64,000 nucleotides of DNA from an uncultured bacterium. Its GTDB lineage: Bacteria > Babelota > Babeliae > Babelales > Vermiphilaceae. A model generated the notes under the pieces. That model was not told the origin of the DNA, did no database searches, and saw nothing but the letters and a program-made list of their open reading frames with translations. Where the stretch lies: NCBI GenBank assembly GCA_963701085.1, contig OY969561.1:1088001-1152000 (forward strand). The letters run 5' to 3'. The position numbers and the translations under genes were made by a program. Positions 105 to 21,167 of the stretch are shown here, piece after piece; positions within the stretch are counted from its first letter, which is position 1; each line of letters opens with the position of its first letter.

Positions 105-128
105 ATGGGAATAAGAAGGGAAAATATA

Positions 129-1130: not shown

Positions 1131-1152
1131 AAGTAGCATAGCTATGAATGAA

Positions 1153-1203: not shown

Positions 1204-1305
1204 TTAATGTAGGGAGAAGAATAAAAAAATTCTTCTCCTTTTTTTTGTCAAAATAGTTATGTATAGTGCTTGTGAGATTTGTTTTTTTACATAAAGGAGT
1301 TTGGC

Positions 1306-1557: not shown

Positions 1558-1583
1558 AAATGTAATAAAGAGAGGAGTGAGTT

Positions 1584-3116: not shown

Positions 3117-3299
3117 AATATTCTCATTATTTAATGTATGTGTCCTTATTATTAGCGTATATTTATTTTCTATTTTCGCAAATGGGGTCTCAAAAAGCCT
3201 TGTTAATGCTGTTTTTATGGGAAAATGGCTGTATACTGAGGGTATATAGGGATTTTTGGGGGGTTAAAAAGTTCCATTTCTTGTTAAATGTTCTTTCCT

Positions 3300-3693
3300 C
3301 GCGCTCGTCCTGAGTTTGTCGAAGGATATCTTCGAGCGCAGTATTAAGAGTTAAATATGCAAAATTACTTTTATCTGTATATTTTAAAATGTGTTAATGG
3401 TGCCTATTATGTAGGGCATACAGATAATATTGAACAGCGTCTGTCAGAGCATCATTTGGGTGTAATTAGTAATTGTTATACAAAAAATAAAAGACCTTTA
3501 GAGCTTGTGTTCCTACAGGATTTTCCTACAAGGGATGCTGCATTTCATGCAGAGCGCCAAGTTAAAGGATGGTCTCGTAAGAAAAAAGAAGCATTGATGA
3601 GAAGCGATTGGGAAGAAATAAGACAATTAAATGTTTTACATAAGAAACAAAGATCGCTCGAGGATATCCTTCGACAAACTCAGGACGAGCGCG
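3300..3693 (+). mobile_element. GIY-YIG cassette 1 bounded by inverted family-A repeats
   Basis: 3300-3338 and 3655-3693 are inverted repeats matching at 38/39 nt. Confidence 0.8.
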
Positions 3694-3704
3694 GGGAAGA
3701 ATAG
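3357..3704 (+). CDS. Small GIY-YIG endonuclease (UPF0213-like), copy 1; C-terminus reads through the right repeat
   Basis: YLYILKC..GAYYVGHT..R..EH, YTK..RP and AERQVKGWSRKKKEAL motifs. Confidence 0.92.
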   Translation: MQNYFYLYILKCVNGAYYVGHTDNIEQRLSEHHLGVISNCYTKNKRPLELVFLQDFPTRDAAFHAERQVKGWSRKKKEALMRSDWEEIRQLNVLHKKQRSLEDILRQTQDERGEE

Positions 3705-3742
3705 GATTTGTTTGTTGAAGAATTAGAATAATATGGAAAAGT

Positions 3743-4405
3743 ATGAATAAGCATGATAAAGCGGCATTAATAGAGCAATTGCTCGCGTATGTGACGGATA
3801 ATAAGCGTGAAAAAATGCAGGCAGTGCTTGTAAACCGCACTCGTTATATTACCGTTATCTTGGAAGATCTCTTTCAGCCGCACAATGCGAGTGCTGCATT
3901 GCGTACCTGTGATATTTTTGGAGTTCAGGATGTTCATGTGGTGGAGGCAAAACATACTTTTAAAGCAATTCCAACCATTGCTATGGGATCATCAAAATGG
4001 GTTGATGTGTATTCTTATTCATTAATCACCGATTCAATTACTGAGCTGAAAAAGCAGGGGTATCGAATAGTTGCAACAACACCACATACTGATTGTTACG
4101 AGCTACCAAATTTGCCACTTGATCAAAAAACAGCACTTGTTTTTGGTAGTGAACAAACCGGGTTATCGGAGGCTGCTTTAGCCCAGGCTGATACGTTTGT
4201 TAAAATACCCATGTATGGCTTTGTGGAAAGTTTTAATGTATCTGTGAGCGTTGCTCTTTGTTTGTATGATGTTATTAATAGATTACATCGTTCATCATAT
4301 GTATGGCAGCTTTCTGAGGACGAAAAGCACGATATCATGCTTGCATGGATTCGTAGGATATCTCAAACGGCAGCATTGCTTGAAAAAGCAGAAAAATTGG
4401 ATTAA
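3743..4405 (+). CDS. trmH: SpoU-family tRNA G18 2'-O-methyltransferase
   Basis: PHNASAALRTCD, FGSEQTG and IPMYGFVESFNVSVS motifs. Confidence 0.9.
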   Translation: MNKHDKAALIEQLLAYVTDNKREKMQAVLVNRTRYITVILEDLFQPHNASAALRTCDIFGVQDVHVVEAKHTFKAIPTIAMGSSKWVDVYSYSLITDSITELKKQGYRIVATTPHTDCYELPNLPLDQKTALVFGSEQTGLSEAALAQADTFVKIPMYGFVESFNVSVSVALCLYDVINRLHRSSYVWQLSEDEKHDIMLAWIRRISQTAALLEKAEKLD

Positions 4406-4422
4406 AAAAATTGGATTAAAAA

Positions 4423-4450
4423 AAAAGAGGAGCTGAAATGCTCCTCTTTT
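4423..4450. terminator. Bidirectional intrinsic terminator
   Basis: aaaagaggagc-tgaaat-gctcctctttt between convergent genes. Confidence 0.8.
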
Positions 4451-4473
4451 AAATTCTTATAAATAACTAAAAT

Positions 4474-4872
4474 TTAGTTACTGTCTGTTGCATATTCGTC
4501 ATCGCCAAAGATATCTTCATCAGCGTTAACATCTTGCGCATTGTATGCTTGTTGTAATTGGTACGCTGCATATGCTGCTGCAACTAATACCATAGTGCGA
4601 CCAATGTAATTGTTGTTAACATATGCTTGAAAATTTCCACCTTGTAGGTAGCTAATTTTTGTAAGTTGATTTAAAAATAAAGGATTAACAGCCCAGTTAA
4701 CGATTAAGTCTGTTGCGTCAACAGTGTATTTTGCTGCGAAAGCAAAAGGAGCTTTTGCTAAGTTAATTACTTCCGAAAAAAAATTAGATTGAGTTGAAGT
4801 TGTGTTATCCATAGAAAACACAGAAGAAGCTGTAAATAAAACTGAGAGTAATGCAATACGTGATATGTTCAT
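4474..4872 (-). CDS. Secreted hypothetical protein with acidic tail
   Basis: Signal peptide VFS|MD; 132 aa. Confidence 0.75.
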   Translation of the reverse strand: MNISRIALLSVLFTASSVFSMDNTTSTQSNFFSEVINLAKAPFAFAAKYTVDATDLIVNWAVNPLFLNQLTKISYLQGGNFQAYVNNNYIGRTMVLVAAAYAAYQLQQAYNAQDVNADEDIFGDDEYATDSN

Positions 4873-5015
4873 AGAGAGTCCTTCAGTATAGAGATTATAA
4901 TTGATGACACTGTTTTATACTTCATTGTGAAGTATCTTGACCTAAATCGTATCCGGAAAACGGCTTTGTGTCAACGGGGGGTAAAAAGGGAAAGAGGGTA
5001 TGGCTATAACCTTGT

Positions 5016-5345
5016 TCATGCGCGCGCATAGATACATTTACCATAGTGCTTAATTGAATAACTAAGCGTAGATTGATCGTTTGAATAATCATCAAATTCT
5101 TCTTTGGTGTAAACCAAAATATTTTTGGCAATTTTAACACCAATAAGAGCTTTATGTCCTTCAGCCATAAGAGCATATCGCTGTTGAAGACCAGCCATAT
5201 CATCATTTACAATTACCAGGATACCAATATCAATAGTATCTTCTCGCTGCGGTTCTAATAAATAAATTTCACGAGGGTTATATGTTTTAACAAGTCGTTT
5301 TGTGATTTCTTCTATTGTTTTTTGATCTAGTTGTTGCGTTTCCAC
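5016..5345 (-). CDS. Minimal nucleotidyltransferase (MNT)-like protein with degenerate active site
   Basis: IEEITKRLVKTYNPREIYL...ILVIV...ILVYTKEEF...GKCIYA fold pattern; GTG start after gaggt. Confidence 0.7.
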   Translation of the reverse strand: METQQLDQKTIEEITKRLVKTYNPREIYLLEPQREDTIDIGILVIVNDDMAGLQQRYALMAEGHKALIGVKIAKNILVYTKEEFDDYSNDQSTLSYSIKHYGKCIYARA

Positions 5346-5436
5346 AATGATTACCTCAACATTAAATTGATCTGTATAATAAATATACTTTATCGTTAGT
5401 TTATAGGTTATACAAACTCTTATGGAGACATTCACA

Positions 5437-5550
5437 ATGAGCAGTAGATTTGCTAAGGATTTAAAGGCATCGCTTAAAGAAGCTATTGCCTATGAGAAAG
5501 CTGGCCTGCCAGCCGTAGCTTTACGCGAAATAAATAATTTTGATTTTTAG
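5437..5550 (+). pseudogene. Probable N-terminal remnant of an HTH antitoxin-like gene, ending in a family-B repeat
   Basis: ggag RBS; MSSRFAKDLKASLKEAIAYEK then repeat-derived codons and TAG. Confidence 0.5.
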
Positions 5551-5671
5551 TCTGCCCGCCGTCGCTAAAGCTATGGCGGACAGCTTTCGCCATTTATTGT
5601 AAGTATTTTTTTTGAATTTGTATCCAACCTTTAAAAAAGCTGGCTTGCCAGCCGTAGCTTTACGCGAAGGC

Positions 5672-5674
<3 letters not shown>
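5497..5674. repeat. Three family-B hairpins adjoining the tRNA-Arg 3' end
   Basis: 33-nt direct repeat 5497-5529 / 5636-5668 (1 mismatch); inverted copy at about 5553-5583. Confidence 0.8.
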
Positions 5675-5748
<74 letters not shown>

Positions 5749-5796
5749 ATCTCATGATTATTAATTATACCAACAAATTTCAAAAAATCATTAGAA

Positions 5797-7296
5797 TTAA
5801 TAGCTTATTGGGATAAATAATTTAATAAACTCAGCGGTAATAGTGTGTATCTGTTTTTGCAGTTCATCTGATATATCCTGTGTTTGGGCGATGGTAGTAT
5901 AAACATTGGGATAGACAGATTTGATATAACTTACGCATTGAAGTGCAAAAGGGTTGACTTGGTTGAGGGCGATGGAATCAAGAAAACCTTCTTTTAAGAA
6001 TAAGAGCATAAGCGCTTGATCAACAAATGAAAATGTTATGTATTGAGGTTGTTTGAGAAGCTCAATTGCACGTTTGCCGCGTTCAAGTTGCCGGTGTGAT
6101 ACTTCGTCCAGTTCAGCGCCAAATTGAGCAAATGCAAGTAGCTCTTGATATTGGGCAAGTTCTAGACGTAAAGCGCGGGTCATTTTTTTAACTGCTTTGG
6201 TTTGCGCAGCTCCACCAACACGAGAAACTGATAACTCAGCGTTTACTGCAGGGCGAATTCCCTGATTAAAGAGGTTGGTATCAAGAAAAATTTGGCCATC
6301 GGTGATAGAAATAAGGTTTGTTGGGATATATGCGGTAATATCATCACCTTGAATTTGTACAATAGGCAATGCCGTGATGGAACCACCTTTTGCTAATTTT
6401 CCTGCACGTTCAAGCAATCGGGAATGGAGATAAAAAACGTCTCCTGGGTAAGCTTCTCGGCCTGGTGATCGTCGCAGGAGGAGTGACATTTCACGAAATG
6501 CTATAGCATGATTGCTCAGATCATCATATACAATGAGCACATCTTTGCCTTGATCGCGGAAATATTCAGCAATAGTGCATCCAACATAAGGAGCAAGATA
6601 TTGACTCAAGACTGCATCGCCAGAATCAGCACTAATAATAACTGAATATTCAAGCGCACCATTTTTTTCTAATAATGAAACAAGTCGAGCTAAGTTTGCT
6701 TGGCGTTGTCCAATGGAGACATAGATACAAATGACGTTTTTGTCTTTTTGATGCAAAATTGTATCAATCACTATTGATGATTTACCCGTACTTCTGTTAC
6801 CGACAATCAGTTCTCGCTGTCCTTTTCCGATAGGAACTAAGACATCAATTGCCAGAATACCAGTTTCGAGGGATTCATTTACGGGAGATCGCTCCATAAT
6901 ACCAGGAATATCTGTTTCTATAGGACGAAATTCTGTTGTATTAAGATCGCCAGCACCATCGCATGGTAATCCTTCAGCGGTTATAACACGGCCAAGCAGC
7001 GATGAGCCAACAGGAGTTGTAAATACTGAATGAGATCTCTTTGCTGTTTCAAGTTCTGCAACCGGAATTGATCTATCAATTAAAAAAATAGCAGCTGAGT
7101 TTTCATTGAGCTGAAAAACAATACCGCTATTTCCGCCTTCAAAGGTGATCAGTTCACCAAGCATGGCATGTGATAAACCATATACCGTACAAATGTTATC
7201 GCCAACGCGAATAACGGTACCAATTTCTTGGAGTTGTTCTTCTGGTAAATCACGCAGTGATCGTTCAAAGAGTGATATGAGATCAGTGTTTTTCAT
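5797..7296 (-). CDS. atpA: F1 ATP synthase subunit alpha
   Basis: [41 protein letters not shown] motifs. Confidence 0.97.
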
Positions 7297-7309
7297 ATTT
7301 TTTTGCTTT

Positions 7310-7855
7310 CTATTTTTCTAACTTCTGCAAGGTTTGCAGATGCTTGCGTACTGAATATTCCCAGAGATAATCATCGCTTTGCAATCTGAGGCCTGCAATA
7401 AGTGATGGATCAAGGGAAGGTGTACCGGTAATGTTTTTATTAAGTAATTGCCCAAGGAATTTTTTAATTGATTCAATTTGTTTTTCATGAAGATTGTGAG
7501 CGCTTTTAAGAGAAAATTCAACGTTGTTAGTTTGGTTATTATAGAGCTTGATAATACAGAATAGTACATCAGGGATGTAAAAAGAGCGATCGTGTGTAAT
7601 AAGTAGCAACATAATTGCTGATAGCTGATGCGGTAAAGAGAAGTGTCCAATAAGGTCAGCAATCATTGATTTTTTTCTTTTTTGGTCAAACTGTGGTAAT
7701 TGCAAGAAAAGTAGCGTTTGCTTATGTTTTTGTAAAAATTTTTGCGCTATGAAGATTTTTCCTATATCAGCAAAAGAGCACGCTTTGGGGAAAACAGTCA
7801 TAAAAGCAGCAGCGTATTTTTTTGAAATATTTCTATCAATAGGTGTGTAATTCAC
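7310..7855 (-). CDS. atpH: ATP synthase subunit delta
   Basis: KKYAAAF and LDPSLIAGL motifs; position before atpA. Confidence 0.85.
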   Translation of the reverse strand: MNYTPIDRNISKKYAAAFMTVFPKACSFADIGKIFIAQKFLQKHKQTLLFLQLPQFDQKRKKSMIADLIGHFSLPHQLSAIMLLLITHDRSFYIPDVLFCIIKLYNNQTNNVEFSLKSAHNLHEKQIESIKKFLGQLLNKNITGTPSLDPSLIAGLRLQSDDYLWEYSVRKHLQTLQKLEK

Positions 7856-8349
7856 GATATTCTTTCATCCATAAAGTGAAGAATTGAATTAAGATACGCT
7901 GATCCCTGCTGTTGATCTTTAAATTGAGTAGAAAGAGATTTTTTTACATCAGCAACAACAGTTTGAGTGATAATATTTTTAACGCGGCTATGTTCACGTT
8001 GAATAGCATTATAAGCCATGCGCTTGTGTACGATTGCTACGGTGCTATTGTGTTCTTTTTCTTGATATTCCCGTTCAAGAGCAACTGCTTTTTTCCACTC
8101 ATCAATTTTTGATCTAAATTTTTCACATTGCAAGGCATCTGTTTTGAGAAGAATATCAAGATTTAATTGTTGTTTTTCAAGATGCGCTTGTTGTAAAAAG
8201 AGAGAATCTTGCATCTCCTTTTTTCGTGCTATGCTTAAAAAAAGGTCAGGCATAACATGTTTTTTAAAAAGAATAAAACCAACGCTGAGTAGAGCGGCAA
8301 AGTTGATGAGTCTAAACGCGATGGCAATAATGTCTTGATTAGTGAACAT
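7852..8349 (-). CDS. atpF: ATP synthase subunit b
   Basis: N-terminal TM (LINF) plus coiled coil; operon position. Confidence 0.75.
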   Translation of the reverse strand: MFTNQDIIAIAFRLINFAALLSVGFILFKKHVMPDLFLSIARKKEMQDSLFLQQAHLEKQQLNLDILLKTDALQCEKFRSKIDEWKKAVALEREYQEKEHNSTVAIVHKRMAYNAIQREHSRVKNIITQTVVADVKKSLSTQFKDQQQGSAYLNSILHFMDERIS

Positions 8350-8713
8350 GTTTTATTTTTTCCTCTATAATGCCGTGTACGTCAGCGATTATATGCGCTA
8401 TGTCTGTGGGTGATAATTCAGCAGGTGCGGCAATACTGTTTTCTGTATCGTCTACAAAGAACGGTATTTCTTTAGGAAGATGTGGTTGATGCGTGTTAAA
8501 GTATTCCTGACAAATGTGCCAGTGGCGTTGCCGTTCTTTTTCTTGAATTTCAAGGCTTTTTTTCTGTTGATCAATGATATCAATCATAGCATTTTCCTGG
8601 GCTTTTTCATGCTCAATAACGCTGACGACTGGTTTAAATAAAAAAAATCGCACCATCCAATAGACAATAAAAAAATTGAACGCTTGGACAAAAAGTGTTG
8701 CATTTATATTCAT
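8339..8713 (-). CDS. ATP synthase subunit b'
   Basis: MNINATLFVQAFNFFIVYW..FFLFKPV motif. Confidence 0.8.
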   Translation of the reverse strand: MNINATLFVQAFNFFIVYWMVRFFLFKPVVSVIEHEKAQENAMIDIIDQQKKSLEIQEKERQRHWHICQEYFNTHQPHLPKEIPFFVDDTENSIAAPAELSPTDIAHIIADVHGIIEEKIKHVH

Positions 8714-8718
8714 TGAGA

Positions 8719-8973
8719 TCACCCAATTTGAGAGCCAAAGAGTAGCAATGCGCCAGAAATTAAGAGGCAATAGATTGAAGACGATTCTACGATAATAAGT
8801 GCAAAAATCATTGTTGAACGAATTTTATTTGCGCTTTCTGGATACTTGCCAATATTTTCACATGCCTTCATGCCAATGATTCCTTGACCAAGAGCTGGAC
8901 CAAGACTTCCCACGCCCATCGTTATTGCGGCACCGAGAAAAGCAGCTGCTTTTGCATAAAAGATTCCATCCAT
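8719..8973 (-). CDS. atpE: ATP synthase subunit c with Na+-binding signature
   Basis: Gly-rich helix 1 GPALGQG; helix 2 IVESSSIY. Confidence 0.93.
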   Translation of the reverse strand: MDGIFYAKAAAFLGAAITMGVGSLGPALGQGIIGMKACENIGKYPESANKIRSTMIFALIIVESSSIYCLLISGALLLFGSQIG

Positions 8974-9238
8974 GGATGACCCCTTTATTTATAATTATTG
9001 TTGTTATTACCTTCTTTTCCTAGTGTAACGCCTTTTTTTATTTTTTCACAAGAATAATCTTGACAAAAGGCTTATTTTTGACAGAAATCGTTAAAGTTGC
9101 TCTTTGGTTGCAGTGAGGGTAGTATCATTTTTTCTAAAATTTTGTAATAATCATTACTATAACCATCGATATAATGGCATGATTTATCTGTTATTTTTAA
9201 AAAAAATCTGAAATTTAATCAAAGAAATATAAAAAATT

Positions 9239-10915
9239 ATGATGTTTTATCTATTAAATTTAATCTGTTCTGGCCTGTTGTTGTGCAGTACATATTCGCT
9301 ATTTTTACCACATCACATTCACGCAGTTGATAGTAAGCACCTGATAGAAACAAAAGATTTTGATTTTGATACCATTTACTTTGATGAGGATGATGATTAT
9401 CAATTTGAAGAATATCTTGATACTGCCGGTATGGACCATATCTCTCGTGCGATAGATCCTTCACAGGTTATGTCTATTCTTAACCTTCTTAAGGTACCCG
9501 CCATTTTAGAAGAGCCTATTTTCTTGCACACCAATATTCTTAATAAACGCAGTTTGCTTGATCAGCCAATTTTTGAGCCAGATAGAGCAGAATTTCCGGG
9601 CAGCTTGGTTGTTGGTGCCAGTGCATTTGTGCATAAAATAGATCGTTCCAATTTCACTAAACATAGCCTCAAGTTGAAGTCATATATCGCGCTCACTGAA
9701 GCATCATTGATTTCTAAGCTTGAAGATACGCTTACTATATTAGATAAGCTCGCGCCAGGTTCTCTTATTGACGTTGCTAAAATATTTTCTCTTTTTGAGA
9801 ACGTGAGCGTGGAAGAGCGGCAAGTTGGGTTTATGTTGCATTGTATGAAGAGCTGGCGTCATACGACTTTGTTTGTGATGATGCCCATTTATTATCTTGA
9901 AAGTAATTATTCTTTTACTCAAAAAGAGCGGGATGCGATAGCCGAAGAGTTGGGAGCTACAGATCCGGAAGAAGAATGGCGATTTGCACAAGCGCATATT
10001 ATTAGCGATAAAATAGGATTTGGTGATCTACGTATAGAGATTGATAATACTACGCTCAAGCGTCCATCTTATACATTGCGCTGTGGTGGTTTTGCAACCA
10101 TTCCAACAGCATGGATCTGGGGAGGAGGTTTTGTAGGTTCACGATTTGCCAAACCTTCAACATTACCAACTCTTGAATTAGATCCTTTTTTTGATGCACT
10201 CGAAAATCCTAGTTTAGGTAAGCAGGATATTAATAAAATTATAGCTGAGTTACTTTTTGATAGTTTGGACCGTGTTGATGCTGATCTTCTTGATGTCCCT
10301 CTTGGTAATAATAAACATCTTGGTATTGGTGGTTATGTACGGGGGAAGTTGCCCTTGCGGCATTATATGAGCACAACGTTTGCTGATAGGATGCACTTGG
10401 CGAGTCGTATATCCTTGGAGTTACAATTTCCTGCAACAGAAAAACGTTTTTATATTAACAAAATTAATGAAGCTGCTTTTGCTGATCGTAATTTTGAAGA
10501 TCTTGATCCTGATGTTGCTGCGGCAAATTTACAATTTCTTAAAGAGCAGGCTATTTCGCGGCTTTTCTTGCGTGCATTTGATACACGCATTATCCCGGGT
10601 GTTATTTTTCGTGCATCGGGAGGCCTGTATTATAAAGGACAAGCATGGGGCTTCAATTTAGGGCCAGATTTTTGGTTGCAGAATAAAGCTCACTTTTCAA
10701 CAATATACGCTCCCGCAAAAACAGTTCATATGCTCGATATTCCCAAAGCAAAGCAGTCTATTGCGTATCAGGCTAAAATTTATGGTGGCATTGTTTTTAA
10801 GCATAAAACAGAAAGAAGTACATGGATTTTTTCACTGAATGCGGATGCTTCACTCTTTGAGCGAGGACTTGGTCAGGATTATACGCTTTCCTTTAATTTT
10901 GAATCAAGCTTTTAA
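9239..10915 (+). CDS. Exported hypothetical protein, possible outer-membrane beta-barrel
   Basis: Signal peptide; alternating-hydrophobic C-terminal strand ending in F. Confidence 0.6.
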   Translation: MMFYLLNLICSGLLLCSTYSLFLPHHIHAVDSKHLIETKDFDFDTIYFDEDDDYQFEEYLDTAGMDHISRAIDPSQVMSILNLLKVPAILEEPIFLHTNILNKRSLLDQPIFEPDRAEFPGSLVVGASAFVHKIDRSNFTKHSLKLKSYIALTEASLISKLEDTLTILDKLAPGSLIDVAKIFSLFENVSVEERQVGFMLHCMKSWRHTTLFVMMPIYYLESNYSFTQKERDAIAEELGATDPEEEWRFAQAHIISDKIGFGDLRIEIDNTTLKRPSYTLRCGGFATIPTAWIWGGGFVGSRFAKPSTLPTLELDPFFDALENPSLGKQDINKIIAELLFDSLDRVDADLLDVPLGNNKHLGIGGYVRGKLPLRHYMSTTFADRMHLASRISLELQFPATEKRFYINKINEAAFADRNFEDLDPDVAAANLQFLKEQAISRLFLRAFDTRIIPGVIFRASGGLYYKGQAWGFNLGPDFWLQNKAHFSTIYAPAKTVHMLDIPKAKQSIAYQAKIYGGIVFKHKTERSTWIFSLNADASLFERGLGQDYTLSFNFESSF

Positions 10916-10920
10916 TCTAC

Positions 10921-11811
10921 ATGTGTAATATGGTAATAAAAAGAATAGAGATAAGAAGATTGGCATATTGTTTGAAAAAGGAGAGTCAATTGAAGAGAAT
11001 AATGTGTGTATTACCATTACTCGTTAGTGCGCTCATAATATATCCATCAGAAAAAAATATTATGCTTGAATCATCAGTAATAAAAGTAGCAGATGGCACG
11101 TTTCTTAATGCCGATAAAATAGAGTTTATTAGAAAATTTCGTCGAACATTACTTACGTTTATTTTTGGTGACCAGCTCTCTAATAATCAACGCAAGGGTA
11201 AGTACTTCTTTTGTGGTAAGTGGCATGGTGTAGAGTCTCTTGCCCGCATTGAGCAAGAATTGGCTACTTCAACACGCAAAGAAGATGTTGAAAAACGACT
11301 TGCAATTGAAGAATTGTTAACGCACGCTAAAGCGGATTTTATTGTCCAATCAAGTGAATTTATCGAAAGTGGACGTGGTGCAAAAAACATTATGGTTGTG
11401 CTTATTCAAGAAGATTGTCAAAAGCGTAATCGCCTGGATAGTTTGTTGTTAGATTGGGCTAAGACCAAAGAAGGGCAAGAATCAACAATGTTTGAACGTC
11501 AGATCACCAGTTTTGGTCATTATTATTATTTTTTGACTGATTTGGTGAATTTTTTATTGGATCTTGTCCATAGTTGTCCCAAAGCAGAAAAACAGTTTAA
11601 AGATCGTGTTGCAAAGTGGAGTGCTGTTAAAGCGATACTACCAACTGTGTTAAAAAAAGCGCATGTAAAAAATGAGTATGTTAATGAAATTGAATTTCTT
11701 AAATATCTTAAAGAGCGGTATCTTGATTCAATAATGCTGAATGAGATTACTCCTCAGGTTATTGTTCCTTTATTAACAGAATATATAAAACATACGAATG
11801 CACATGCCTGA
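10921..11811 (+). CDS. Hypothetical protein (start uncertain)
   Basis: 296-aa ORF overlapping the recD2 start. Confidence 0.7.
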   Translation: MCNMVIKRIEIRRLAYCLKKESQLKRIMCVLPLLVSALIIYPSEKNIMLESSVIKVADGTFLNADKIEFIRKFRRTLLTFIFGDQLSNNQRKGKYFFCGKWHGVESLARIEQELATSTRKEDVEKRLAIEELLTHAKADFIVQSSEFIESGRGAKNIMVVLIQEDCQKRNRLDSLLLDWAKTKEGQESTMFERQITSFGHYYYFLTDLVNFLLDLVHSCPKAEKQFKDRVAKWSAVKAILPTVLKKAHVKNEYVNEIEFLKYLKERYLDSIMLNEITPQVIVPLLTEYIKHTNAHA

Positions 11812-14092
11812 AATTGAATCCTTACAAGGAGTTGTTGATCGCGTTATTTATCAAAATCAAGAAAATGGCTTTGCTGTTTTTGTTATCCAACTGAACGCAA
11901 AAAATAGTGTTACTGTCAAAGGATGTGTGCCGACAATTACTGCTGGCGAACAGGTATTGGTGAGCGGCGTTTGGAATATGCATCAAAAATTTGGCAAACA
12001 GTTTGATGCGCAATCATGTGAAAAGCAGGCGCCGACTTCTATTCTTGGTCTTAAAAAATATTTGGGTTCGGGGCTTATCAAAGGTATTGGTCCGGTTTAT
12101 GGTGATAAGCTGGTAGCAGCTTTTGGTGAAAAAGTTCTTGAAGTTATTGATCAACATCCTGAGCGTCTTATGTCTGTTCCCGGTATTGGTGCTAAGCGTG
12201 TTGAAAAAATTGTCACTGCCTGGAAAGATCAAAAAGAGATTTCCAACATCATGGTTTTTTTGCAAAATAAAGGAATTTCTTCTACCTATGCAGTAAAAAT
12301 TTATAAGCAGTACAAAGAAAACGCTATTGCTATTATTGAGGAAAATCCATATCGCCTTGCACAAGATATGTGGGGTATTGGTTTTAAGACTGCTGATCAG
12401 ATAGCGCAAAAAAGTGGTATTGCTCCTGATTGTAAGCGACGCATTGTGGCAGCAATTTTACATGTTATTCAGACAACATCGAGTGATGGTAATTTGTATA
12501 TACAGCTCGAATTGCTTAAAAAAGAGATGGCAGAGTTGCTTGAGTTGGAACTTGAAGGCATTCAGCATACAACAAAATGTGCGCTGCATGATCTGTATAA
12601 TGCTGATAAAATAAAATTATTAACGCATAACGATATTCATTATATTACGTTGCCTTCATTTTATTTTTCTGAAAAAGGTATTGCGCATAAAATTGATAAA
12701 ATGGTCACATCGGCACCACATCATACATTTGATTTGGAGAAAATAAAAAAAAATTTATGGAATGATTCCTGTTTAAATCATTCTTCCCGCGCTCGTCCTG
12801 AACCTGTTGAAGGATGTCCCCGAGCGCTCGAAGAAACCCTTCAACAAGTTCAGGGCGAGCGCAAGGAGATGCATAACAATGGTATTGCCCTTAATGAACA
12901 GCAGCAGGAAGGTGTGCTCGCCTGTTTGCAGCACAAAGTTACTATTATTACTGGTGGCCCGGGAACGGGTAAAACAACACTTATTAAAAAATTATTAATG
13001 CTGCTTGATCTACAACGAGTTAAATATGCACTTGCAGCCCCAACAGGAAGAGCGGCAAAACGTATTACGGAAGGCACAGGAAGGCCCGCTTCTACTATTC
13101 ATCGGTTGCTTGATTTTGATGTAAGTACCATGTCTTTTAGATACAATGAATCCCATCCTCTTGCGGTTGATTATCTGATTGTTGATGAAGCATCGATGAT
13201 TGATGTGTTTCTTGCGAACGCATTGATTAAAGCATTGCCAGCATCGGCACATCTTGTGTTGATTGGTGATATTGATCAGTTGCCATCAGTTGGTGCGGGT
13301 AATTTTTTACATGATATGATTGCGAGTAAAAAAATTGCCACCATAAGTCTTAAGCATATATTTAGGCAAGCGCAAGATAGCCTTATTATTATTAATGCCC
13401 ATCGTATTAACAATGGAGAATTCCCAACGACGGAACATGAAAATTCGCGCAAAGATTTTATTTTTATTAAAGAAGATAATCCAGAAAATATACCAATGCA
13501 TTTGGAAGCTATTTATAGTAAAGCATTACGTCATTATGGCATCCACAAAGATGATACAATTGTACTCACACCGATGCATCGTGGCGTTGCAGGAACACAA
13601 AAATTAAATCATGATTTGCAACAGCTGTTGAATGGTAATAATGGTGGACCGGCTGTTGGGTATGCAGGAGCGCAGTTTCAGGTTGGTGATCGAGTGATGC
13701 AGCTGCGTAATAATTATGATAAAAATGTGTTTAATGGTGATATTGGGGTTATTGAAAGCATTAATGCAGAAGATAAAATAGTGCACGTACGTTTTTTTGA
13801 AAATATTGTTGATTATGAAACATCAGATCTTAATGAATTGGTGCATGCGTATGCAATTTCTATTCATAAAAGCCAAGGATCTGAATTTTCTGCCGTTATT
13901 ATTCCGGTTTTTATGCAGCATTTTATGATGCTGCAACGAAATTTACTGTATACCGCCGTTACGCGTGCAAAAAAATTATGTATAATCATAGGGCAATCGC
14001 GTGCTATTGCAATGGGAATAAAAAATAATAAAAGCAGCGAGCGTATTACGTTTTTACAACAATTTTTGACAACAGATTTAGCATGCCGATAA
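11804..14092 (+). CDS. recD2: RecD2-like ATP-dependent helicase with in-frame repeat insertion
   Basis: GIGP HhH, GGPGTGKT, APTGRAAKR, DEASM, HKSQGSEF motifs. Confidence 0.95.
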   Translation: MPEIESLQGVVDRVIYQNQENGFAVFVIQLNAKNSVTVKGCVPTITAGEQVLVSGVWNMHQKFGKQFDAQSCEKQAPTSILGLKKYLGSGLIKGIGPVYGDKLVAAFGEKVLEVIDQHPERLMSVPGIGAKRVEKIVTAWKDQKEISNIMVFLQNKGISSTYAVKIYKQYKENAIAIIEENPYRLAQDMWGIGFKTADQIAQKSGIAPDCKRRIVAAILHVIQTTSSDGNLYIQLELLKKEMAELLELELEGIQHTTKCALHDLYNADKIKLLTHNDIHYITLPSFYFSEKGIAHKIDKMVTSAPHHTFDLEKIKKNLWNDSCLNHSSRARPEPVEGCPRALEETLQQVQGERKEMHNNGIALNEQQQEGVLACLQHKVTIITGGPGTGKTTLIKKLLMLLDLQRVKYALAAPTGRAAKRITEGTGRPASTIHRLLDFDVSTMSFRYNESHPLAVDYLIVDEASMIDVFLANALIKALPASAHLVLIGDIDQLPSVGAGNFLHDMIASKKIATISLKHIFRQAQDSLIIINAHRINNGEFPTTEHENSRKDFIFIKEDNPENIPMHLEAIYSKALRHYGIHKDDTIVLTPMHRGVAGTQKLNHDLQQLLNGNNGGPAVGYAGAQFQVGDRVMQLRNNYDKNVFNGDIGVIESINAEDKIVHVRFFENIVDYETSDLNELVHAYAISIHKSQGSEFSAVIIPVFMQHFMMLQRNLLYTAVTRAKKLCIIIGQSRAIAMGIKNNKSSERITFLQQFLTTDLACR
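12788..12862. repeat. Empty family-A doublet read in-frame within recD2
   Basis: Two inverted arms fused at cgagcgctcg; encodes RARPEPVEGCPRALEETLQQVQGER. Confidence 0.9.
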
Positions 14093-14748
14093 AAAAAATA
14101 ATTTTTTGTTTATGCATCATGGGCATAACCTTGCCTATTATTGTACGGGAAAAACAACCACGTATTGTTGTTATTGATCCTGCTGGTGATGCTAAACGTA
14201 CTGGTAGACGCATTGGTGATAGTTTTGAGCGTGGTCTGACATTGCAGTGTGTTGAAAAAATAAAAGAGATCATTGGAGAACGTGCTCCGCATATTAAAGT
14301 TGTTCTGACGCGCATGCCGGGTGATAATGTGTATGACTTACAAAATGCATCTTTGTCTAATCGCATTCATGCAGATCTTTTTGTGAGTCTCAATTTTTAT
14401 CATACGCAAGAAACTAAGCCTACTCTGTATCTGTACCAATTTTCTTATGGCAATGATTTTGCATGTTGTCAGCAAGGTTTAACATTACAGAGCTATGACC
14501 AGGCATATAGAATTAATAAAGAGACAACTGATGCGATGTGTCAGTTGTTTCAAAAAGAGCTTTTGCAACAAAAATACCATTCGCTTTGTACAGTTGCAGG
14601 GCCTTATCATTTGCCGATAAAACCATTAATTGGTATTGTCGCACCAAGTATTGCGGTTGAAGTGGGATTAAAAGGTAAAGATTTGTGGCATTATTATAGT
14701 GAGCCGTTGGCAAATGCTATTATTACCATTGTTGATGAGTTGGAATAA
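14083..14748 (+). CDS. N-acetylmuramoyl-L-alanine amidase (Amidase_3)-like protein lacking Zn-ligand histidines
   Basis: VVIDP, VVLTR, ADLFVSL, PSIAVEVG motifs. Confidence 0.8.
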   Translation: MPIKKIIFCLCIMGITLPIIVREKQPRIVVIDPAGDAKRTGRRIGDSFERGLTLQCVEKIKEIIGERAPHIKVVLTRMPGDNVYDLQNASLSNRIHADLFVSLNFYHTQETKPTLYLYQFSYGNDFACCQQGLTLQSYDQAYRINKETTDAMCQLFQKELLQQKYHSLCTVAGPYHLPIKPLIGIVAPSIAVEVGLKGKDLWHYYSEPLANAIITIVDELE

Positions 14749-14814
14749 GCGATCAGATCTTTTTTGTAAAGAGTGAATATAATAATATGGTATCTATCAA
14801 AGTAGATTATGTCC

Positions 14815-15222
14815 TTCCCGCGCTCGTCCTGAACTTGTTGAAGGATGTCCTAGAGCGCTCTTAATAGAGATAATAAATATGCAAAATCATTTTTACATGT
14901 ACATTTTAAAATGCATAAATGGTGCATATTATGTTGGACATACAGATAATATTGATAAAAGAATGTCCGAACATAATTTAGGTTTAATTAGTGGTTGTTA
15001 TACTAAAAATAAATGGCCCCTAGAGCTTGTGTGTCTTGAAGTTTTTTCAACGAGAGATGATGCATTTCATGCGGAGAGACAAGTTAAAGGTTGGTCGCGC
15101 AAGAAAAAAGAAGCTTTTATACAAAATGATTGGGACAAAATTAAAAAACTTAATTTTTTACAAAAATAATGATGGGGAGCGCTCGAGGACATCCTTCAAC
15201 AAGTTCAGGACGAGCGCGGGAA
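14815..15222 (+). mobile_element. GIY-YIG cassette 2 bounded by inverted family-A repeats
   Basis: 14815-14860 and 15177-15222 are inverted repeats matching at 45/46 nt. Confidence 0.85.
14879..15169 (+). CDS. Small GIY-YIG endonuclease, copy 2
   Basis: About 74% identical to 3357-3704 over 96 aa (counted by eye). Confidence 0.92.
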   Translation: MQNHFYMYILKCINGAYYVGHTDNIDKRMSEHNLGLISGCYTKNKWPLELVCLEVFSTRDDAFHAERQVKGWSRKKKEAFIQNDWDKIKKLNFLQK

Positions 15223-15245
15223 AGCAAGAATAATTTGAGGTAACC

Positions 15246-15791
15246 ATGAATAATATCTCTCGTTCTCATATAATCATCGTCAGCACCTCTTTTATATCAG
15301 CACTCCTTTTTTTTGCCATATATAACCAATGGATATTATTCCGTGCACCTTGGAGCGCGAATTATGGTAGTGATAGTGCATCAGTTATACAAAAGAAACA
15401 GGTGACGCATTATTATTTTCATGGTGATAAGTGGAAAACAGAAAAGCAGGAATTGTTGTGGACAGAAAGTGTTGAGAAAAATATTTTTCAACTTATCAAT
15501 GCGTGGCTTACGCTTTTAGATGAAGAGCACATCACGGCAAAGAAAACAATGCTGCAGTCGGCATTGATCTCAACAGCCGGCTGTGTGTATCTCTCTTTTG
15601 ATCATAATATTTTGGGTAAAGAAGAGACGATTTTTAGAAAATGGATGCTTATTGAGGGATTACTTAAAACAATCATCTTACATGATATTCCCATTAAAAA
15701 CGTACAATTTCTTGTCCAACACCAGCCGCTCCACGATGCTCATCTTGATTTTTCTCTGCCATGGCCAATTCATGGATTTATAAAAAGCTAA
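15246..15791 (+). CDS. GerMN-like membrane-anchored protein
   Basis: N-terminal TM; VYLSFD, LLKTI, IKNVQFLV, HLDFS motifs; follows amidase. Confidence 0.65.
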   Translation: MNNISRSHIIIVSTSFISALLFFAIYNQWILFRAPWSANYGSDSASVIQKKQVTHYYFHGDKWKTEKQELLWTESVEKNIFQLINAWLTLLDEEHITAKKTMLQSALISTAGCVYLSFDHNILGKEETIFRKWMLIEGLLKTIILHDIPIKNVQFLVQHQPLHDAHLDFSLPWPIHGFIKS

Positions 15792-15883
15792 ATTAGGTGT
15801 TACTACAATATTCTTATTTTTTTAACTTTATTAATTATACTAACGTATGATTTTTTTGTTTTTTTACCTAGAAGGATAGGTTT

Positions 15884-16525
15884 ATGTATAAGAAGGTAAG
15901 TAGTGGTATTCTTGTTGTTGGTTTTTTTAGTTTATGTGGTGTTACTTTTGGAATGGAGCGGGAGCATGTTTTAATGCAGTTAATGCGGAAAGATATTATT
16001 CCTATTTTGTTGCTGAATGATTATATAATTAATGCTCCAACAGCATATCAGGCTTTGCTCAGAGAGGCATCCCTTGGACAAGATATAATGAAGCCCATGA
16101 TTAACAGTACAAATGAACAAATGAGACAATATTATGAAGAAAAGGGTGTGGTTCATCGAGTCCCTGATGCTAAAACGTGCAAAAGAGTGACAAGTTATTA
16201 TGTACAGAATCCTTGTTTTAGAAAGGCAGCAATTTTGTATCAGAATGAATTTGGATTAGATGCTGCCAATGATTCTAGCGCTTCTCTAAGAATACGTACG
16301 CTGAATTATCGTATTTCTCCCTCAAATTTTAAATCAGTTATGCATTGTGAATATCATCGTATTCTCGAAAATCTTGGTGTATCAATTAAAAAGGATCTTG
16401 TTTTTTGGTTGTCAGATAAATGGAAACCGGTTTTTATTGAGTTATATGCACCGGATGAGCCTTCTGATTGGATCAGAATTGAAAACTATTACGGATACAT
16501 TAATGATAATTGTTTCTGTTTTTGA
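15884..16525 (+). CDS. Secreted hypothetical protein
   Basis: Signal peptide TFG|ME. Confidence 0.75.
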   Translation: MYKKVSSGILVVGFFSLCGVTFGMEREHVLMQLMRKDIIPILLLNDYIINAPTAYQALLREASLGQDIMKPMINSTNEQMRQYYEEKGVVHRVPDAKTCKRVTSYYVQNPCFRKAAILYQNEFGLDAANDSSASLRIRTLNYRISPSNFKSVMHCEYHRILENLGVSIKKDLVFWLSDKWKPVFIELYAPDEPSDWIRIENYYGYINDNCFCF

Positions 16526-16540
16526 TGAGAATGATTTGCA

Positions 16541-18094
16541 TTATAATTCCAGTTTTTTTTGAGAATAGAGTGTATCAAAATGTTGATTTACTTTATTTTC
16601 ACTCTCATATTTCAATAATGCAGTACCCTCGAATAATTCTTTAAATTCTGCAAATGCATAACGATTTTCATCAAACAGAGAGTTGTTGCACAATGAATCA
16701 TGTACAGCAGCAATATCAAGTTCTTTTATTACCGTATAGGCTTGGTATTGTGTAGCTGTTGGGGTTGTTTTTGTAAGCCGTGCGTTGTTATATTTTTTTA
16801 CTAATGTGCAAAAAAGAGAAATATATTGTCTTATATTTTCAGGAGAGTGTTTTGAATCAAAAAACCTACAAAATAGCTCTTTAATTGATGGAAATGATTC
16901 AAATCCAATAATGTTAGCAGCAAGATCATCCTCATTAATTATATCTCGCGCGTTTTTTGCTTTATCAATCATTTGTATAAGATGGTAGAGATCATAGGTG
17001 GTGCCATTGTGGAGTAACAGATCATAAGCATGAGTGTAAAATTCATTTTTAAAATCTACGTAAGAACCTTGTGAATAATCCTGTAATAGTATGCCGTCAT
17101 TTTCATACAAATAAGTCGTGAAAATATTTACAGATCCAATATCAAGCTCTTGCATAGCATGCCGTAAAGCGCAGGTGAGTTGAAAAAAGGCTGGATATGT
17201 TAAGAAGTCATTATGTGTATGTGTTGTATTCGTAACAGTCTGTTCGTTTGTATCAGATGGTGCAGTGAGGATGTCTTTAAGGCGGGTTTTTTTTGCACCA
17301 AAGTGAAGAGGTGGTTGTTCACCTGTTTCACGTACCGTTAGGTTGTATTTTTTTAAAAGACTGAAAAAAAGAGGGTAGAATGGGGTCATATCAATATCAT
17401 TAATAGTCAAAATTCCTTTTTTATTATACGCAAACCGCCCCATACTATCTTCATGTATACCGCTATTTCTTGCCTCATTCATATGTTGGATTAAGCGAAC
17501 AAGTTTTTTATTTTGATATTTTTGCTCAAGTCGTTTTCCATATTCACCACAGACAATACGGCAAGATTCATTGTACAGTGATTGCATCATATTTTCATCA
17601 GGTCGTAAGGAGTTGGTGAGTAAAAGTGGCTTTTGCACGGATGTGCCCTTCGTAGCCTTGGCGAAGTAGGGTTCTTGCTCAGTAGATTTACTCTGTTTTT
17701 TGTAGACGGGGGTAAGAAGTTGAGCCTCATTAGTAGTTGCCACTGGTTGGTCACGTTTATAGGTCATATCCATGACTTTATTATATAGTGGCCAATTTGT
17801 ATTGACGATTTGATCATAGGTTTGTTGTTTATTTACGTCTGGCTGCACATTGGTATGTATGGGTTGGGAATAGGGGTTTGGGTCAAAAATAACCAAAGGA
17901 TGTCCTGTTGGGGTGATACAGGGCCAGTTGCGTTCATATGTCATATTTGTAAAACGTTCCCAACCAAGCTCATTTGCTTTGAACACAGGCACATTTTGTG
18001 GCGCAGGATGATGAATTTTGGGACGTTCTCGTTCCATGCATGAGGTGGTGAGAGTAGTGATGGTCAGAAATAAAGAGAGATATATTTTTTTCAT
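16541..18094 (-). CDS. Secreted orphan protein, paralogue 1 of 3; family-B unit in-frame at 17642-17671
   Basis: Shared motifs MTYKRDQ, EDSMG, KKYNN, DSLCNNSLF. Confidence 0.85.
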   Translation of the reverse strand: MKKIYLSLFLTITTLTTSCMERERPKIHHPAPQNVPVFKANELGWERFTNMTYERNWPCITPTGHPLVIFDPNPYSQPIHTNVQPDVNKQQTYDQIVNTNWPLYNKVMDMTYKRDQPVATTNEAQLLTPVYKKQSKSTEQEPYFAKATKGTSVQKPLLLTNSLRPDENMMQSLYNESCRIVCGEYGKRLEQKYQNKKLVRLIQHMNEARNSGIHEDSMGRFAYNKKGILTINDIDMTPFYPLFFSLLKKYNLTVRETGEQPPLHFGAKKTRLKDILTAPSDTNEQTVTNTTHTHNDFLTYPAFFQLTCALRHAMQELDIGSVNIFTTYLYENDGILLQDYSQGSYVDFKNEFYTHAYDLLLHNGTTYDLYHLIQMIDKAKNARDIINEDDLAANIIGFESFPSIKELFCRFFDSKHSPENIRQYISLFCTLVKKYNNARLTKTTPTATQYQAYTVIKELDIAAVHDSLCNNSLFDENRYAFAEFKELFEGTALLKYESENKVNQHFDTLYSQKKLEL

Positions 18095-18097
18095 AGG

Positions 18098-19639
18098 TTA
18101 TTTCCTTGGAGGATAAAATTGATCAATACATTCCTGTATATTTTCGTCAGAAGAGTTAGTTAATATTCTTATATTATCAATTAATTCTTTAAATTCATCA
18201 AATGCATATATTGTTTTGTTGAACAGCGTATTATCACATGAATCAGGTAAGGCAAAATCGGAGTTATAATAGCGGAATTCGTTATAAGCTTCGAATTGAT
18301 TATATGTTGGTGTTTTTTTATCTTTTCGTTGATTATTGTATTTTTTTATGAGAAGGCAAAGAATACCAATAAGTTTTTTTGTGTAAAATGTATTATGAAT
18401 TTTTCCTGCGACAGGGCTTAAGAATGTAAAAAGTTTTTCTGTTGCTGTTAGTTCTGATTCAATAATATCATAGCCAAAATCATATTCTTGTTTTTCAGGA
18501 ATTAATGTTGTTCCGGCTTCGATTATTTTTATTACATCATACAGGCGGCTATTTATTGACCCTTGAAATTCTTTTTCATATATGGTGAGCAAGACTATAG
18601 GGTATGTCAGTTTATAAAACTTATCTTTTAAATTAGCATATGATAATGGTAAGTAATCATTTTGTGGAATTTCTTTGTTTGAATAGACATAAAAAAGAAA
18701 ATTCTTCATCATGCCGTTTCTGTGTTGCTTACTTGCATACGATTCTAAATTATAAAATGCAGGATAGTTACGGCATACTGATACAGGGTCATATGCATAA
18801 TTGATTTTGTTTGTGTTGGCAGAAGATGGAAGGTCAAGAATTTTGGCAAGTCGGTTGTTAGTTGTTTGGGTTGATGATAACTCATTATTATTTGGAAGAG
18901 GTTCCTTTGTGTTGTTGACCGTCAGGTTATAGTGTTTTAAATAACCAAAAAAAAGCACCATTTTTTCTTCTAATCCTTCTTGGTTATCCAGCCATTTATC
19001 ATATGAATATTTTCCCATAACATCTTCGTCTATATTTTTATTCTTTGCAGTATTCATATCAGTAATCAAAGTTATAAGAGTTTTTGTAGAAGGGTTTTTA
19101 ATAATAGTGAATGCATTATCATATAATTGTTGCATATCAGTATTAGGTTGCACCTGAGGCTTTGTTAGCAACAAAGTCTTTTTTTCGCGCGTTCTTTTTG
19201 ACGTGTGCTTGTCCGCCGTAGTTTTACCGTGTCCTCCGATCTGTCCTCCGTAGCCTTCGGCGAAGGATGGAACGAAGGAGGATAAAGAAGTGTAGGTAGA
19301 GGTTGTGTTGTCTTCAGGTACTGTTTGTACGTAGACGGGAACAAGAAGATCATTTGCATTGGTAGATACCACCGGTTGGTCATGTTTATAGGTCATATCC
19401 ATGATTTCATTATATTTTTGCCAATTTGTATCGACGATTCGTTTATAGGTTTGTTGATTATTTACTATGTCTGGCTGCGTATTGGTATGTATGGGTTGGG
19501 GGAGGAATGGGGTTTGGCTAAAAATAGTTAAAGGGAATCCTGTTAGATTGGTGGTACAGGGCCAGTGGCGTTGTTGTTCCATGCATGAGGTGGTGAGAGT
19601 AGTGATGGTCAGAAATAAAGAGAGATACATTTTTTTCAT
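18098..19639 (-). CDS. Secreted orphan protein, paralogue 2 of 3; nested family-B composite in-frame at about 19208-19296
   Basis: Signal peptide nearly identical to paralogue 1; C-terminal half similar to paralogue 3. Confidence 0.85.
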   Translation of the reverse strand: MKKMYLSLFLTITTLTTSCMEQQRHWPCTTNLTGFPLTIFSQTPFLPQPIHTNTQPDIVNNQQTYKRIVDTNWQKYNEIMDMTYKHDQPVVSTNANDLLVPVYVQTVPEDNTTSTYTSLSSFVPSFAEGYGGQIGGHGKTTADKHTSKRTREKKTLLLTKPQVQPNTDMQQLYDNAFTIIKNPSTKTLITLITDMNTAKNKNIDEDVMGKYSYDKWLDNQEGLEEKMVLFFGYLKHYNLTVNNTKEPLPNNNELSSTQTTNNRLAKILDLPSSANTNKINYAYDPVSVCRNYPAFYNLESYASKQHRNGMMKNFLFYVYSNKEIPQNDYLPLSYANLKDKFYKLTYPIVLLTIYEKEFQGSINSRLYDVIKIIEAGTTLIPEKQEYDFGYDIIESELTATEKLFTFLSPVAGKIHNTFYTKKLIGILCLLIKKYNNQRKDKKTPTYNQFEAYNEFRYYNSDFALPDSCDNTLFNKTIYAFDEFKELIDNIRILTNSSDENIQECIDQFYPPRK

Positions 19640-19643
19640 AATG

Positions 19644-21008
19644 TTATTTCCTTGGAGGATAAAGGTGATCAATACATTCCTGTATATTTTCGTCAGAAGA
19701 CCGAGCTAATATTGTTATATGATTAACTAACTCTGTAAATTCATCAAGTGCATATATTTCTTTGTTGAACACCGTATTATCACATGAATCAGGTAAGGCA
19801 AAATTGGAGTTACAATAGCGGAATTCGTTATAAGCTTTGAATTGAGTATATGTTGGTGTTATTTTATCTTTTCGTTGATTATTGTATTTTTTTATGAGAT
19901 GGCAAAGAATACCAATACGTTTTTTTGCACGATGCGGATTATCGTCTAGTTTTATGATGCTTAACAATATAAAAAGTCCTTCTTCTGTTGTTAGCTCTGA
20001 TTCAATAATATCATAACCAAAATCATATTCTTGTTTTTTAGGAATTGATGTTATTCCGGCTTCGATTATTTTTATTAAATCATACAGGTAGATACCTACT
20101 GTTTCTTGATATTCTGCATATTTTGTGTAGCAGATCACACAAGATGCCAGCTCATAAAACTTATCTTTTAAATCAGCATATGATAATTGTGAGTAATTGT
20201 TTTGTGGGATTTCTTTGTTTGAATAGACATAAGAAATAAAAGTCTTCATTAAGCCGTTATAGGGCTTCATACTTGCATACGATTCTAAATTATAAAATGC
20301 ATGATAGTTATGGCATACTGATTCATGGTCGTATATATAATAGGTTTTGCTTGTGTTAGCAGAAGATGGAAGGTCAAGGATTTTGGCAAGTTGGTTGTTA
20401 GTTTTTGGTGTTAATTTTTTTTTGTATAACTCATTATTATTTGGAAGAAGTTCTTTTGTGTTGTTGACCGTCAGGTTATAGCGTTTTAAATAACCAAAAA
20501 AAAGCACCATTTTTTCTTCTGATGCCTCTTGTTTGTCCAGCCATTTATCATATGAATATTTCCCCATAACATCTTCATCTATATTTTTATTCTTTGCATC
20601 ATTCATATCAGTAATTAAAGTAATCAGAGTTTTTGTAGAAAGGTTTTTAATAACAGTGAATACATTATCATACAATTGTTGTATATCGGTATGAGGTTGC
20701 ACGGGAATAAGGGTGCGTAAAAATGGCTTTGTTTCTTCTTTTTCACATTGTTTTTTTGTTAGGGCCGTATTATTTGTATGCATTGGGCGGTAGATGGGTG
20801 TAAGTTCAATTTCATTGATAGCAATTGTTTGGTCGCGTTTATAGGTCATATTCATAATGTTATCTAGATATTTCTCGTTAGTATCATATGCCTCGCACAC
20901 AGGTATATTTTGTGGCACAGGATGATGAATCTTGGGGCGTTCTCGTTCCATGCATGAGGTTGATACAATATGGGTTGCGAGTAATAAAAAAGCAGATATT
21001 TTTTTCAT
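19644..21008 (-). CDS. Secreted orphan protein, paralogue 3 of 3 (no repeat insert)
   Basis: MERERPKIHHP shared with paralogue 1; C-terminal YPPRK shared with paralogue 2. Confidence 0.85.
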   Translation of the reverse strand: MKKISAFLLLATHIVSTSCMERERPKIHHPVPQNIPVCEAYDTNEKYLDNIMNMTYKRDQTIAINEIELTPIYRPMHTNNTALTKKQCEKEETKPFLRTLIPVQPHTDIQQLYDNVFTVIKNLSTKTLITLITDMNDAKNKNIDEDVMGKYSYDKWLDKQEASEEKMVLFFGYLKRYNLTVNNTKELLPNNNELYKKKLTPKTNNQLAKILDLPSSANTSKTYYIYDHESVCHNYHAFYNLESYASMKPYNGLMKTFISYVYSNKEIPQNNYSQLSYADLKDKFYELASCVICYTKYAEYQETVGIYLYDLIKIIEAGITSIPKKQEYDFGYDIIESELTTEEGLFILLSIIKLDDNPHRAKKRIGILCHLIKKYNNQRKDKITPTYTQFKAYNEFRYCNSNFALPDSCDNTVFNKEIYALDEFTELVNHITILARSSDENIQECIDHLYPPRK

Positions 21009-21167
21009 GCGATAATTCCTTGAAGGCATAATTAATGGTCATAGCATTGCATATTTTATAGCATGAATGAGTACGATCGTCCATGGGTGTTTTTTTGTGT
21101 ACTTGACTCTTATCATTATAAAAATATATGTTTGGGAATAGATGAATTTAAAAAAAAGGAAGAGATT

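Follow-up and report, generated by a model that had tools for sequence, protein, structure and literature searches.

A GIY-YIG nuclease gene between CGYTC-tagged hairpin repeats: a candidate mobile family parallel to Ssn/NTS and separate from it

Single-domain GIY-YIG proteins of the cd10448 type have been described as nucleases whose cuts in single-stranded DNA (ssDNA) fall a few bases upstream of a tagged hairpin (Chenal et al. 2025, PMC11893778). The same paper notes the NTS-ssnA-NTS layout, draws the parallel with REP/RAYT loci as a hypothesis, presents the mobilisation of SsnA also as a hypothesis, and reports that transformation of Neisseria is reduced by SsnA; its text and searched supplements contain neither of the terms UPF0213 and cd10456. 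In addition, several CGTC-tagged REP families have been reported without a dedicated transposase, according to the parts consulted of Di Nocera et al. (2013, PMC3733652). A literature search, with subscription journals and preprint supplements outside its scope, returned no description of the nuclease clade treated here (class A) or of its repeat beyond these two papers. The original prediction for the present locus was that a nuclease takes the enzyme's place in a REP/RAYT-like arrangement. The parallel in layout holds, but the concept was not new, since the layout and the REP/RAYT comparison are already in print in the consulted text of Chenal et al. (2025, PMC11893778).

The locus lies in a window of 64,000 nt (the whole stretch of DNA analysed) from a genome of 1.2 Mb in one contig, 92.6% complete by markers, of an uncultured bacterium of the Vermiphilaceae. 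As predicted, the gene of a 96-aa single-domain class A nuclease (14879..15169, + strand) stands within 46-nt inverted repeats. PF01541 (E 2e-18) is the only Pfam domain of the protein; residues Y8, Y18, G20, R28, H32 and E66 are intact, with Y8, Y18 and E66 invariant in an alignment of 34 class A proteins, and the structural model has a pLDDT of 89. The left arm (14815..14860, + strand) consists of a tag (14820-14825), a stem (14826-14833 paired with 14839-14846) that contains tandem G-A mismatches and closes a 5-nt loop, and a self-complementary octamer (14853-14860). The right arm (15177..15222, - strand) is inverted, with its tag outward, and is identical to the left one at 45 of 46 positions. 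Both had been read as hairpins closed by cgctc and gagcg; they are indeed hairpins, but the conserved stem is the inner one, the outer cgctc/gagcg pairing being a feature of this subtype. The flanking genes, both on the + strand, agree with their first description: upstream, a host amidase-like gene (14083..14748; Amidase_3, E 1.4e-7) that abuts the next gene in most relatives, and downstream a host GerMN-like gene (15246..15791), an assignment that is only a lead: its 181-aa product had no match in a Pfam search, and Germane PF10646 comes from the named Atlas clusters nearest to it (score 0.91). The best explanation for this arrangement is an autonomous unit of roughly 400 bp made of arm, nuclease gene and inverted arm. 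No Rfam family fell over the arms in a scan of window positions 1-20000, and a promoter and terminator scan found nothing above chance; ViennaRNA misses the inner G-A stem, with z-scores of only -1.8 for the left arm and -3.0 for the right. Among the matches listed for sequencing runs there was no RNA run and the best run shared 0.25 of words, while the contigs from 4 of 16 runs were short and of low depth, their joints at the arms being explained by other repeat copies.

A second cassette of the same layout, also anticipated, has a left arm with its own loop variant (3295..3338, + strand), a right arm 95% complementary to it (3655..3698, - strand) and the gene of a 115-aa class A protein (3357..3704, + strand), whose frame reads through the right arm and whose product is 74% identical to the 96-aa nuclease. 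This gene is inserted with a conserved TATACT hexamer on one side and the start of spoU on the other. Of the six GIY-YIG matches found in the source genome, four are close paralogues (class A), one is a short protein outside that class and one belongs to a long frame. Each of the four class A genes stands between inverted arms with outward tags, 389-434 nt apart, a bracket shared by only 5 of 959 other ORFs of at least 120 aa. The paralogues have 77-78% nucleotide identity, with dS ~1.3 and dN/dS of 0.10-0.13; these coding-sequence comparisons show the class A gene to be evolving under purifying selection. Since no recent identical paralogues exist, movement would be slow, or the copies would have arrived separately.

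Many arms without a gene had likewise been foreseen. Of the 14-mer core of the arm there are 18 copies in the window, where shuffles average 0.04, and 200 in the genome, against 2 for the reversed-pattern control; counted with one mismatch plus the 3' half, the genome holds 225 arms at 143 loci, 26 of the arms being inside ORFs, and the pairs within 200 nt comprise 50 with tags outward and 26 with tags inward. The conserved unit is a CGYTC tag followed by an inner stem, RYSS-T-GA-R / Y-GA-A-SSRY, which contains two adjacent G-A mismatches and is capped by a 5-nt loop or a longer inner stem-loop. In 62 distinct short arms beside class A genes, gathered without any pairing constraint and uncorrected for relatedness, Watson-Crick pairing holds for three pairs of the stem in 53, 54 and 55 cases, whereas the shuffle means are 26, 28 and 32 and none of 5000 shuffles reaches the observed values. 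In 135 arms of the source genome the loop is closed by an A-T pair 99 times and by a G-C pair 36 times. Tandem G-A pairs of the sheared type are stable in DNA in a YGAR context, and they would form on one strand only. Single arms of the source genome have no bias of orientation with respect to transcription (21 versus 24) or to replication (29 of 62, leading/lagging). As to the outer boundary, there is no sharp end: left-right identity stays elevated for about 7 nt beyond the tag, and in 4 of 79 cases (L031, L011, L034, L114) the inverted identity reaches 37-99 nt past it. The extended identity of L034 is unique AT-rich DNA, which suggests arm-to-arm copying.

The commonest gene-less form, of 73-74 nt, consists of two arms overlapped at the shared self-complementary octamer that ends each cassette arm, and these dimers are best explained as the non-autonomous form of the cassette. 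Gene-less dimers with outward tags lie in the window at 12789..12862 (in frame inside recD2), 50987..51061, 52641..52714 and 63693..63768. The third of these is enclosed, within 52382-53012, by nested inverted repeats of two other families (I7 and I14). In about 80 arms of the genome a variable inner stem-loop replaces the 5-nt loop, as at window positions 38172-38302 and 49789-49855; these long-form arms are often closed by loops of the C-GNA-G or G-CTTG-C type, and they bracket the fourth class A paralogue (C1:339.1-339.5 kb).

The REP and REPIN families offer a parallel to this repeat. REP/REPIN-RAYT systems share with it tagged hairpins, inverted dimers abundantly dispersed in the chromosome without the gene, an enzyme gene placed inside its cognate repeats, a chromosomal habit and the lack of target duplication. 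However, the RAYT enzyme is an HUH Y1 tyrosine transposase (PF01797), whereas a hydrolytic GIY-YIG protein (PF01541) occupies its place here, the tag is CGYTC and not GTAG, and Y1_Tnp has no match in the source genome. As described in the consulted parts of Di Nocera et al. (2013, PMC3733652), the CGTC REPs have a 5' tag (CGTC, TGTC or CCTC), an 8-9-bp stem, a 4-5-nt loop, head-to-head dimers and intragenic copies; stem and loop fit the present repeat, and CGYTC is one base off. In two basal class A loci (L048, L117) the same stem follows a GTC-type tag. By these descriptions the CGYTC repeat may be a relative of the CGTC REPs of that paper, or even identical with one of CGTC-1 to -4.

A wider search started from the 34-protein class A alignment and took the best 80 of at least 577 confirmed loci in GTDB genomes, from 11 phyla by title; 73 remained after two duplicates and five loci cut by contig ends were dropped. 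Among these 73 of the best 80, a bracket with outward tags was found at 47 and an arm on some side at 71, the full bracket being absent from 26, while none of 262 control positions shifted by 0.9-1.4 kb was bracketed. Within the order, 32 of 47 class A loci are bracketed, a set that drops four cut rows and includes the four copies of the source genome and some fragments, as against 0 of 48 shifted controls. Ssn-type genes (0 of 11) and class C genes (0 of 11) do not have this bracket. Fully bracketed loci come from at least 8 phyla; they include loci of Chloroflexota, Pseudomonadota, Babeliales, Campylobacterota, Myxococcota, Thermodesulfobacteriota, Gemmatimonadota and Nitrospirota. Within a cassette the two arms are more like each other (median likeness 0.86) than like other arms (0.54), the own arm being best or tied in 49 of 81 cases, and arm distance rises weakly with protein distance (Mantel r 0.33 and 0.23, a correlation confounded by ancestry).

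Repeat number follows the gene as well. In 61 genomes of the order the median count is 51.5 in the 28 with a class A gene and 1 in the 33 without, a correlation favoured by a motif defined from arms beside class A genes and drawn from related genomes that are not independent. Fourteen of the 16 genomes with at least 50 repeats have a class A gene; the exceptions are 10 of the 33 genomes without a detected gene, which hold 13-63 repeats, and 8 of the 28 with one, which hold fewer than 10. On the other hand, Y1_Tnp, present in 18 of the 61 genomes, hardly separates them (13.5 repeats with, 7 without), and none of 10 Y1_Tnp loci examined is bracketed by the arms. Four transposase families (Y1_Tnp, IS110, rve and DDE_Tnp_1) have no match in the 92.6% complete source genome. 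Homologues proved to be mostly flanked and repeat number to track the gene, both as the original prediction would have it, and no RAYT/IS200-type TnpA among the loci examined turned out to own the same repeats. At the level of sequence, these comparisons show the class A gene and the CGYTC-tagged tandem-G-A hairpin to behave as a cognate pair across phyla.

With regard to its protein relatives, class A comes closest to UPF0213 (YhbQ, BH0048, EF2693) and Slx1. The nearest solved structures, by sequence and by fold, are UPF0213 proteins (BH0048, 1zg2; EF2693, 1ywl), followed by Slx1, and profile comparison with them gives E 6e-23, versus 1e-8 for the Ssn-type profile. Two trees were built from 70 and 76 proteins over 94 columns, with no mixture model, with a long-branch warning and with SsnA itself not included. 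In both, 20 Ssn-type proteins, assigned by their NTS/SRM flanks (e.g. L206, L207), form one side (99/97 and 99/98) with no class A row among them, while three canonical UPF0213 proteins join class A (99/91) on a long, unstable branch. A rooting with UvrC as outgroup was discarded, because it put the root within class A and at the end of a branch of very great length. The nearest structures and the side taken in the tree agree with the UPF0213-like identity first proposed for the nuclease. However, flanking arms are lacking at E. coli yhbQ and at two further canonical UPF0213 genes, and class A has motifs of its own (GHTD and W-S/T/N-R-x-K-K).

The comparison with Ssn, as far as the consulted text of the Ssn paper describes that system, yields both likenesses and differences. 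Alike are a single-domain GIY-YIG protein of about 95 aa, a repeat-gene-inverted repeat order with tags outward, a 5' tag followed by a stem of about 8 bp and a short loop, many gene-less copies, and the catalytic residues, Y6, Y17 and E64 of SsnA aligning to Y8, Y18 and E66 through the Ssn-type profile. Unlike Ssn, class A is a separate branch with the CGYTC tag and tandem G-A mismatches instead of SRM/NTS, has several copies per genome at shifting sites, and forms N-terminal fusions to host genes. Neither SRM nor NTS (at up to 3 mismatches) has any match in the source genome; SRM brackets none of 120 class A loci and occurs on any side of only 1 of 73 in the broad set and 0 of 47 in the order, whereas it was found upstream of 5 of 10 broad Ssn-type genes taken as a positive control. 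As judged from alignments and flanks, class A is outside the Ssn-type clade and on the UPF0213 side, and the SRM pattern failed for it. By all comparative tests, the nuclease would nevertheless work like an Ssn enzyme without being a member of that family.

The orthologous sites in relatives provide the evidence for movement. The GerMN-like gene was found in 56 genomes, and its junction with the amidase-like gene was examined in 29 relatives: the two genes abut in 20, are separated by a 42-nt spacer in one and by gene-less repeat pairs in 4, and the rest have an Ssn-type cassette (1), other inserts (2) or no amidase nearby (1), so that the empty junctions looked for do exist and none of the 29 contains a class A gene. 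Neither does the thioredoxin-spoU junction of the second cassette in any of 9 same-genus relatives. Both loci are therefore derived, not syntenic and ancestral. The Ssn-type cassette at the amidase-GerMN junction (L170/L054, G021:C12) has its own inverted repeat. None of 16 same-genus cassettes lies at one of the four class A sites of the source genome, and 12 of them map on both sides to that genome, at 10 distinct sites. The recD2 dimer is an insertion of 34-35 codons, absent from all 7 same-genus orthologues aligned (8 regions fetched). The loop of DprA has independent in-frame insertions in four genomes (loci L274, L275, L277): G003 and G007 have one arm each there, the source genome a dimer (C1:535385-535455) and G004 a palindromic repeat of another kind.

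In other phyla, 23 of the best 80 of at least 577 loci are N-terminal fusions in which a linker derived from the repeat connects the nuclease with one of four unrelated host genes, 10 of them checked by Pfam and the rest by eye (including L077, L086, L107, L110, L121, L129, L131 and L147); the partners are a SpoU/TrmJ-type methylase (17), a TadA-like deaminase (3), MeaB (2) and alanine racemase (1). Seventeen loci of Sphingomonadales share one fusion site, which implies a long vertical residence there. No excess of direct repeats indicative of target-site duplication was found around 50 dimers or the 4 cassettes; this lack, together with the old paralogues and the absence of recent identical copies, separates the family from classical IS elements and MITEs. 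Taken as comparisons of genomes, these sites show that cassettes and gene-less copies have come to occupy new positions within the genus.

By analogy with SsnA, the class A enzyme probably cuts its own hairpin in ssDNA, strand-specifically and a few bases 5' of the tag. It would bind the hairpin whenever one strand becomes single-stranded, as in replication, repair or incoming DNA, and the G-A mismatches would make the fold strand-specific. With tags pointing outward, a cassette or dimer would be cut at both of its outer ends, the two cuts lying on opposite strands. To our knowledge, a hydrolytic GIY-YIG enzyme forms no covalent intermediate and cannot perform the covalent strand transfer of the RAYT type. 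Because of this, copying and joining would need the host: repair or recombination would join the piece or copy it elsewhere, leaving insertions with variable flanks and no target duplication. That hairpin cutting drives the spread of the repeats through host repair is a view towards which we lean only slightly. With somewhat more assurance, the class A unit can be regarded as a mobile nuclease-hairpin family that is parallel to Ssn/NTS but separate from it.

Among other readings, the one that survives best, though unlikely, is that of a domesticated host factor, which would cut the hairpin to trim incoming or recombining ssDNA while host processes spread the repeats and selection keeps them. 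The SsnA precedent in Neisseria would fit such a role, as would the presence of ComEC and a DprA-family gene in the source genome, the purifying selection on old paralogues, and a chromosomal habit (class A relatives in 3 of 72,556 plasmid records and no confirmed one in viral contigs). However, a mobile unit accounts better than a housekeeping gene for the patchy presence of the gene (28 of 61 genomes), for its 1-5 copies at sites that differ between close relatives and for its independent insertions at gene starts. In any case, a domesticated role and a mobile element are not mutually exclusive.

Still less probable is a form of homing, in which the gene parasitises the repeat: its enzyme would cut a gene-less dimer, arm-templated repair would place a copy of the gene at the centre of that dimer, and the repeats would spread by other means. 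A cassette does look like a dimer opened at its central palindromic octamer, junctions are reused by unrelated elements, and the source genome has a gene-less pair at 4 of the 10 sites where relatives carry a cassette, the background being about 127 non-genic repeat loci in 958 gaps. But no repeat is detected at the other 6, subtype or orientation often differs at shared sites, and no other mobiliser tracks the repeats. The last reading, that the repeats are RNA-level terminators or stabilisers, or are moved by RAYT/IS200 enzymes, around an ordinary repair gene bracketed by chance, is very improbable and already largely refuted by the sequence comparisons, since its slight support (27 of 143 repeat loci between convergent genes versus 147 of 958 gaps, and the Y1_Tnp of some relatives) has to stand against the bracketing of 4 of 4 genes versus 5 of 959 ORFs and of 47 of 73 loci versus 0 of 262 controls, the lack of strand bias to mRNA, the unbracketed Y1_Tnp loci and the armless yhbQ and canonical UPF0213 genes.

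Regarded as a mobile nuclease-hairpin family, class A carries the nuclease-hairpin principle past Ssn: it adds a second branch of proteins and a second family of repeats, with bracketed loci in at least 8 phyla. The empty orthologous sites, the in-frame insertions and the fusions to four host genes add comparative evidence for the movement of such cassettes and of the copies without the gene, a movement that the consulted text of the Ssn paper (PMC11893778) only hypothesised. The broadest claim, a cross-phylum class of mobile elements whose only enzyme is a single-domain hydrolytic GIY-YIG protein reading a tagged tandem-G-A ssDNA hairpin, and which would mobilise its own gene and hundreds of REPIN-like copies via host repair, is put forward tentatively and with a shade more doubt than belief. 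If it is true, class A and Ssn together would supply the dedicated enzyme so far missing from the non-GTAG REP families, each nuclease branch being paired with a tag of its own, and would open a second source of programmable ssDNA cutters. What spreads transposase-less REP-like repeats becomes directly testable with a 96-aa protein and an oligonucleotide of 30-50 nt, and ssDNA nucleases of new specificity may result.

The source genome also holds a small GIY-YIG gene of a third class (class C, about 80 aa; C1:843843-844097, - strand), which is without a simple inverted bracket and adjoins an apparent tRNA gene and another family of palindromic repeats (D12/D14). Elsewhere in the window, positions 16541-21026, 41277-43523 and 44788-48478 contain tandem paralogous genes of unknown function with stretches that are 64-91% identical.
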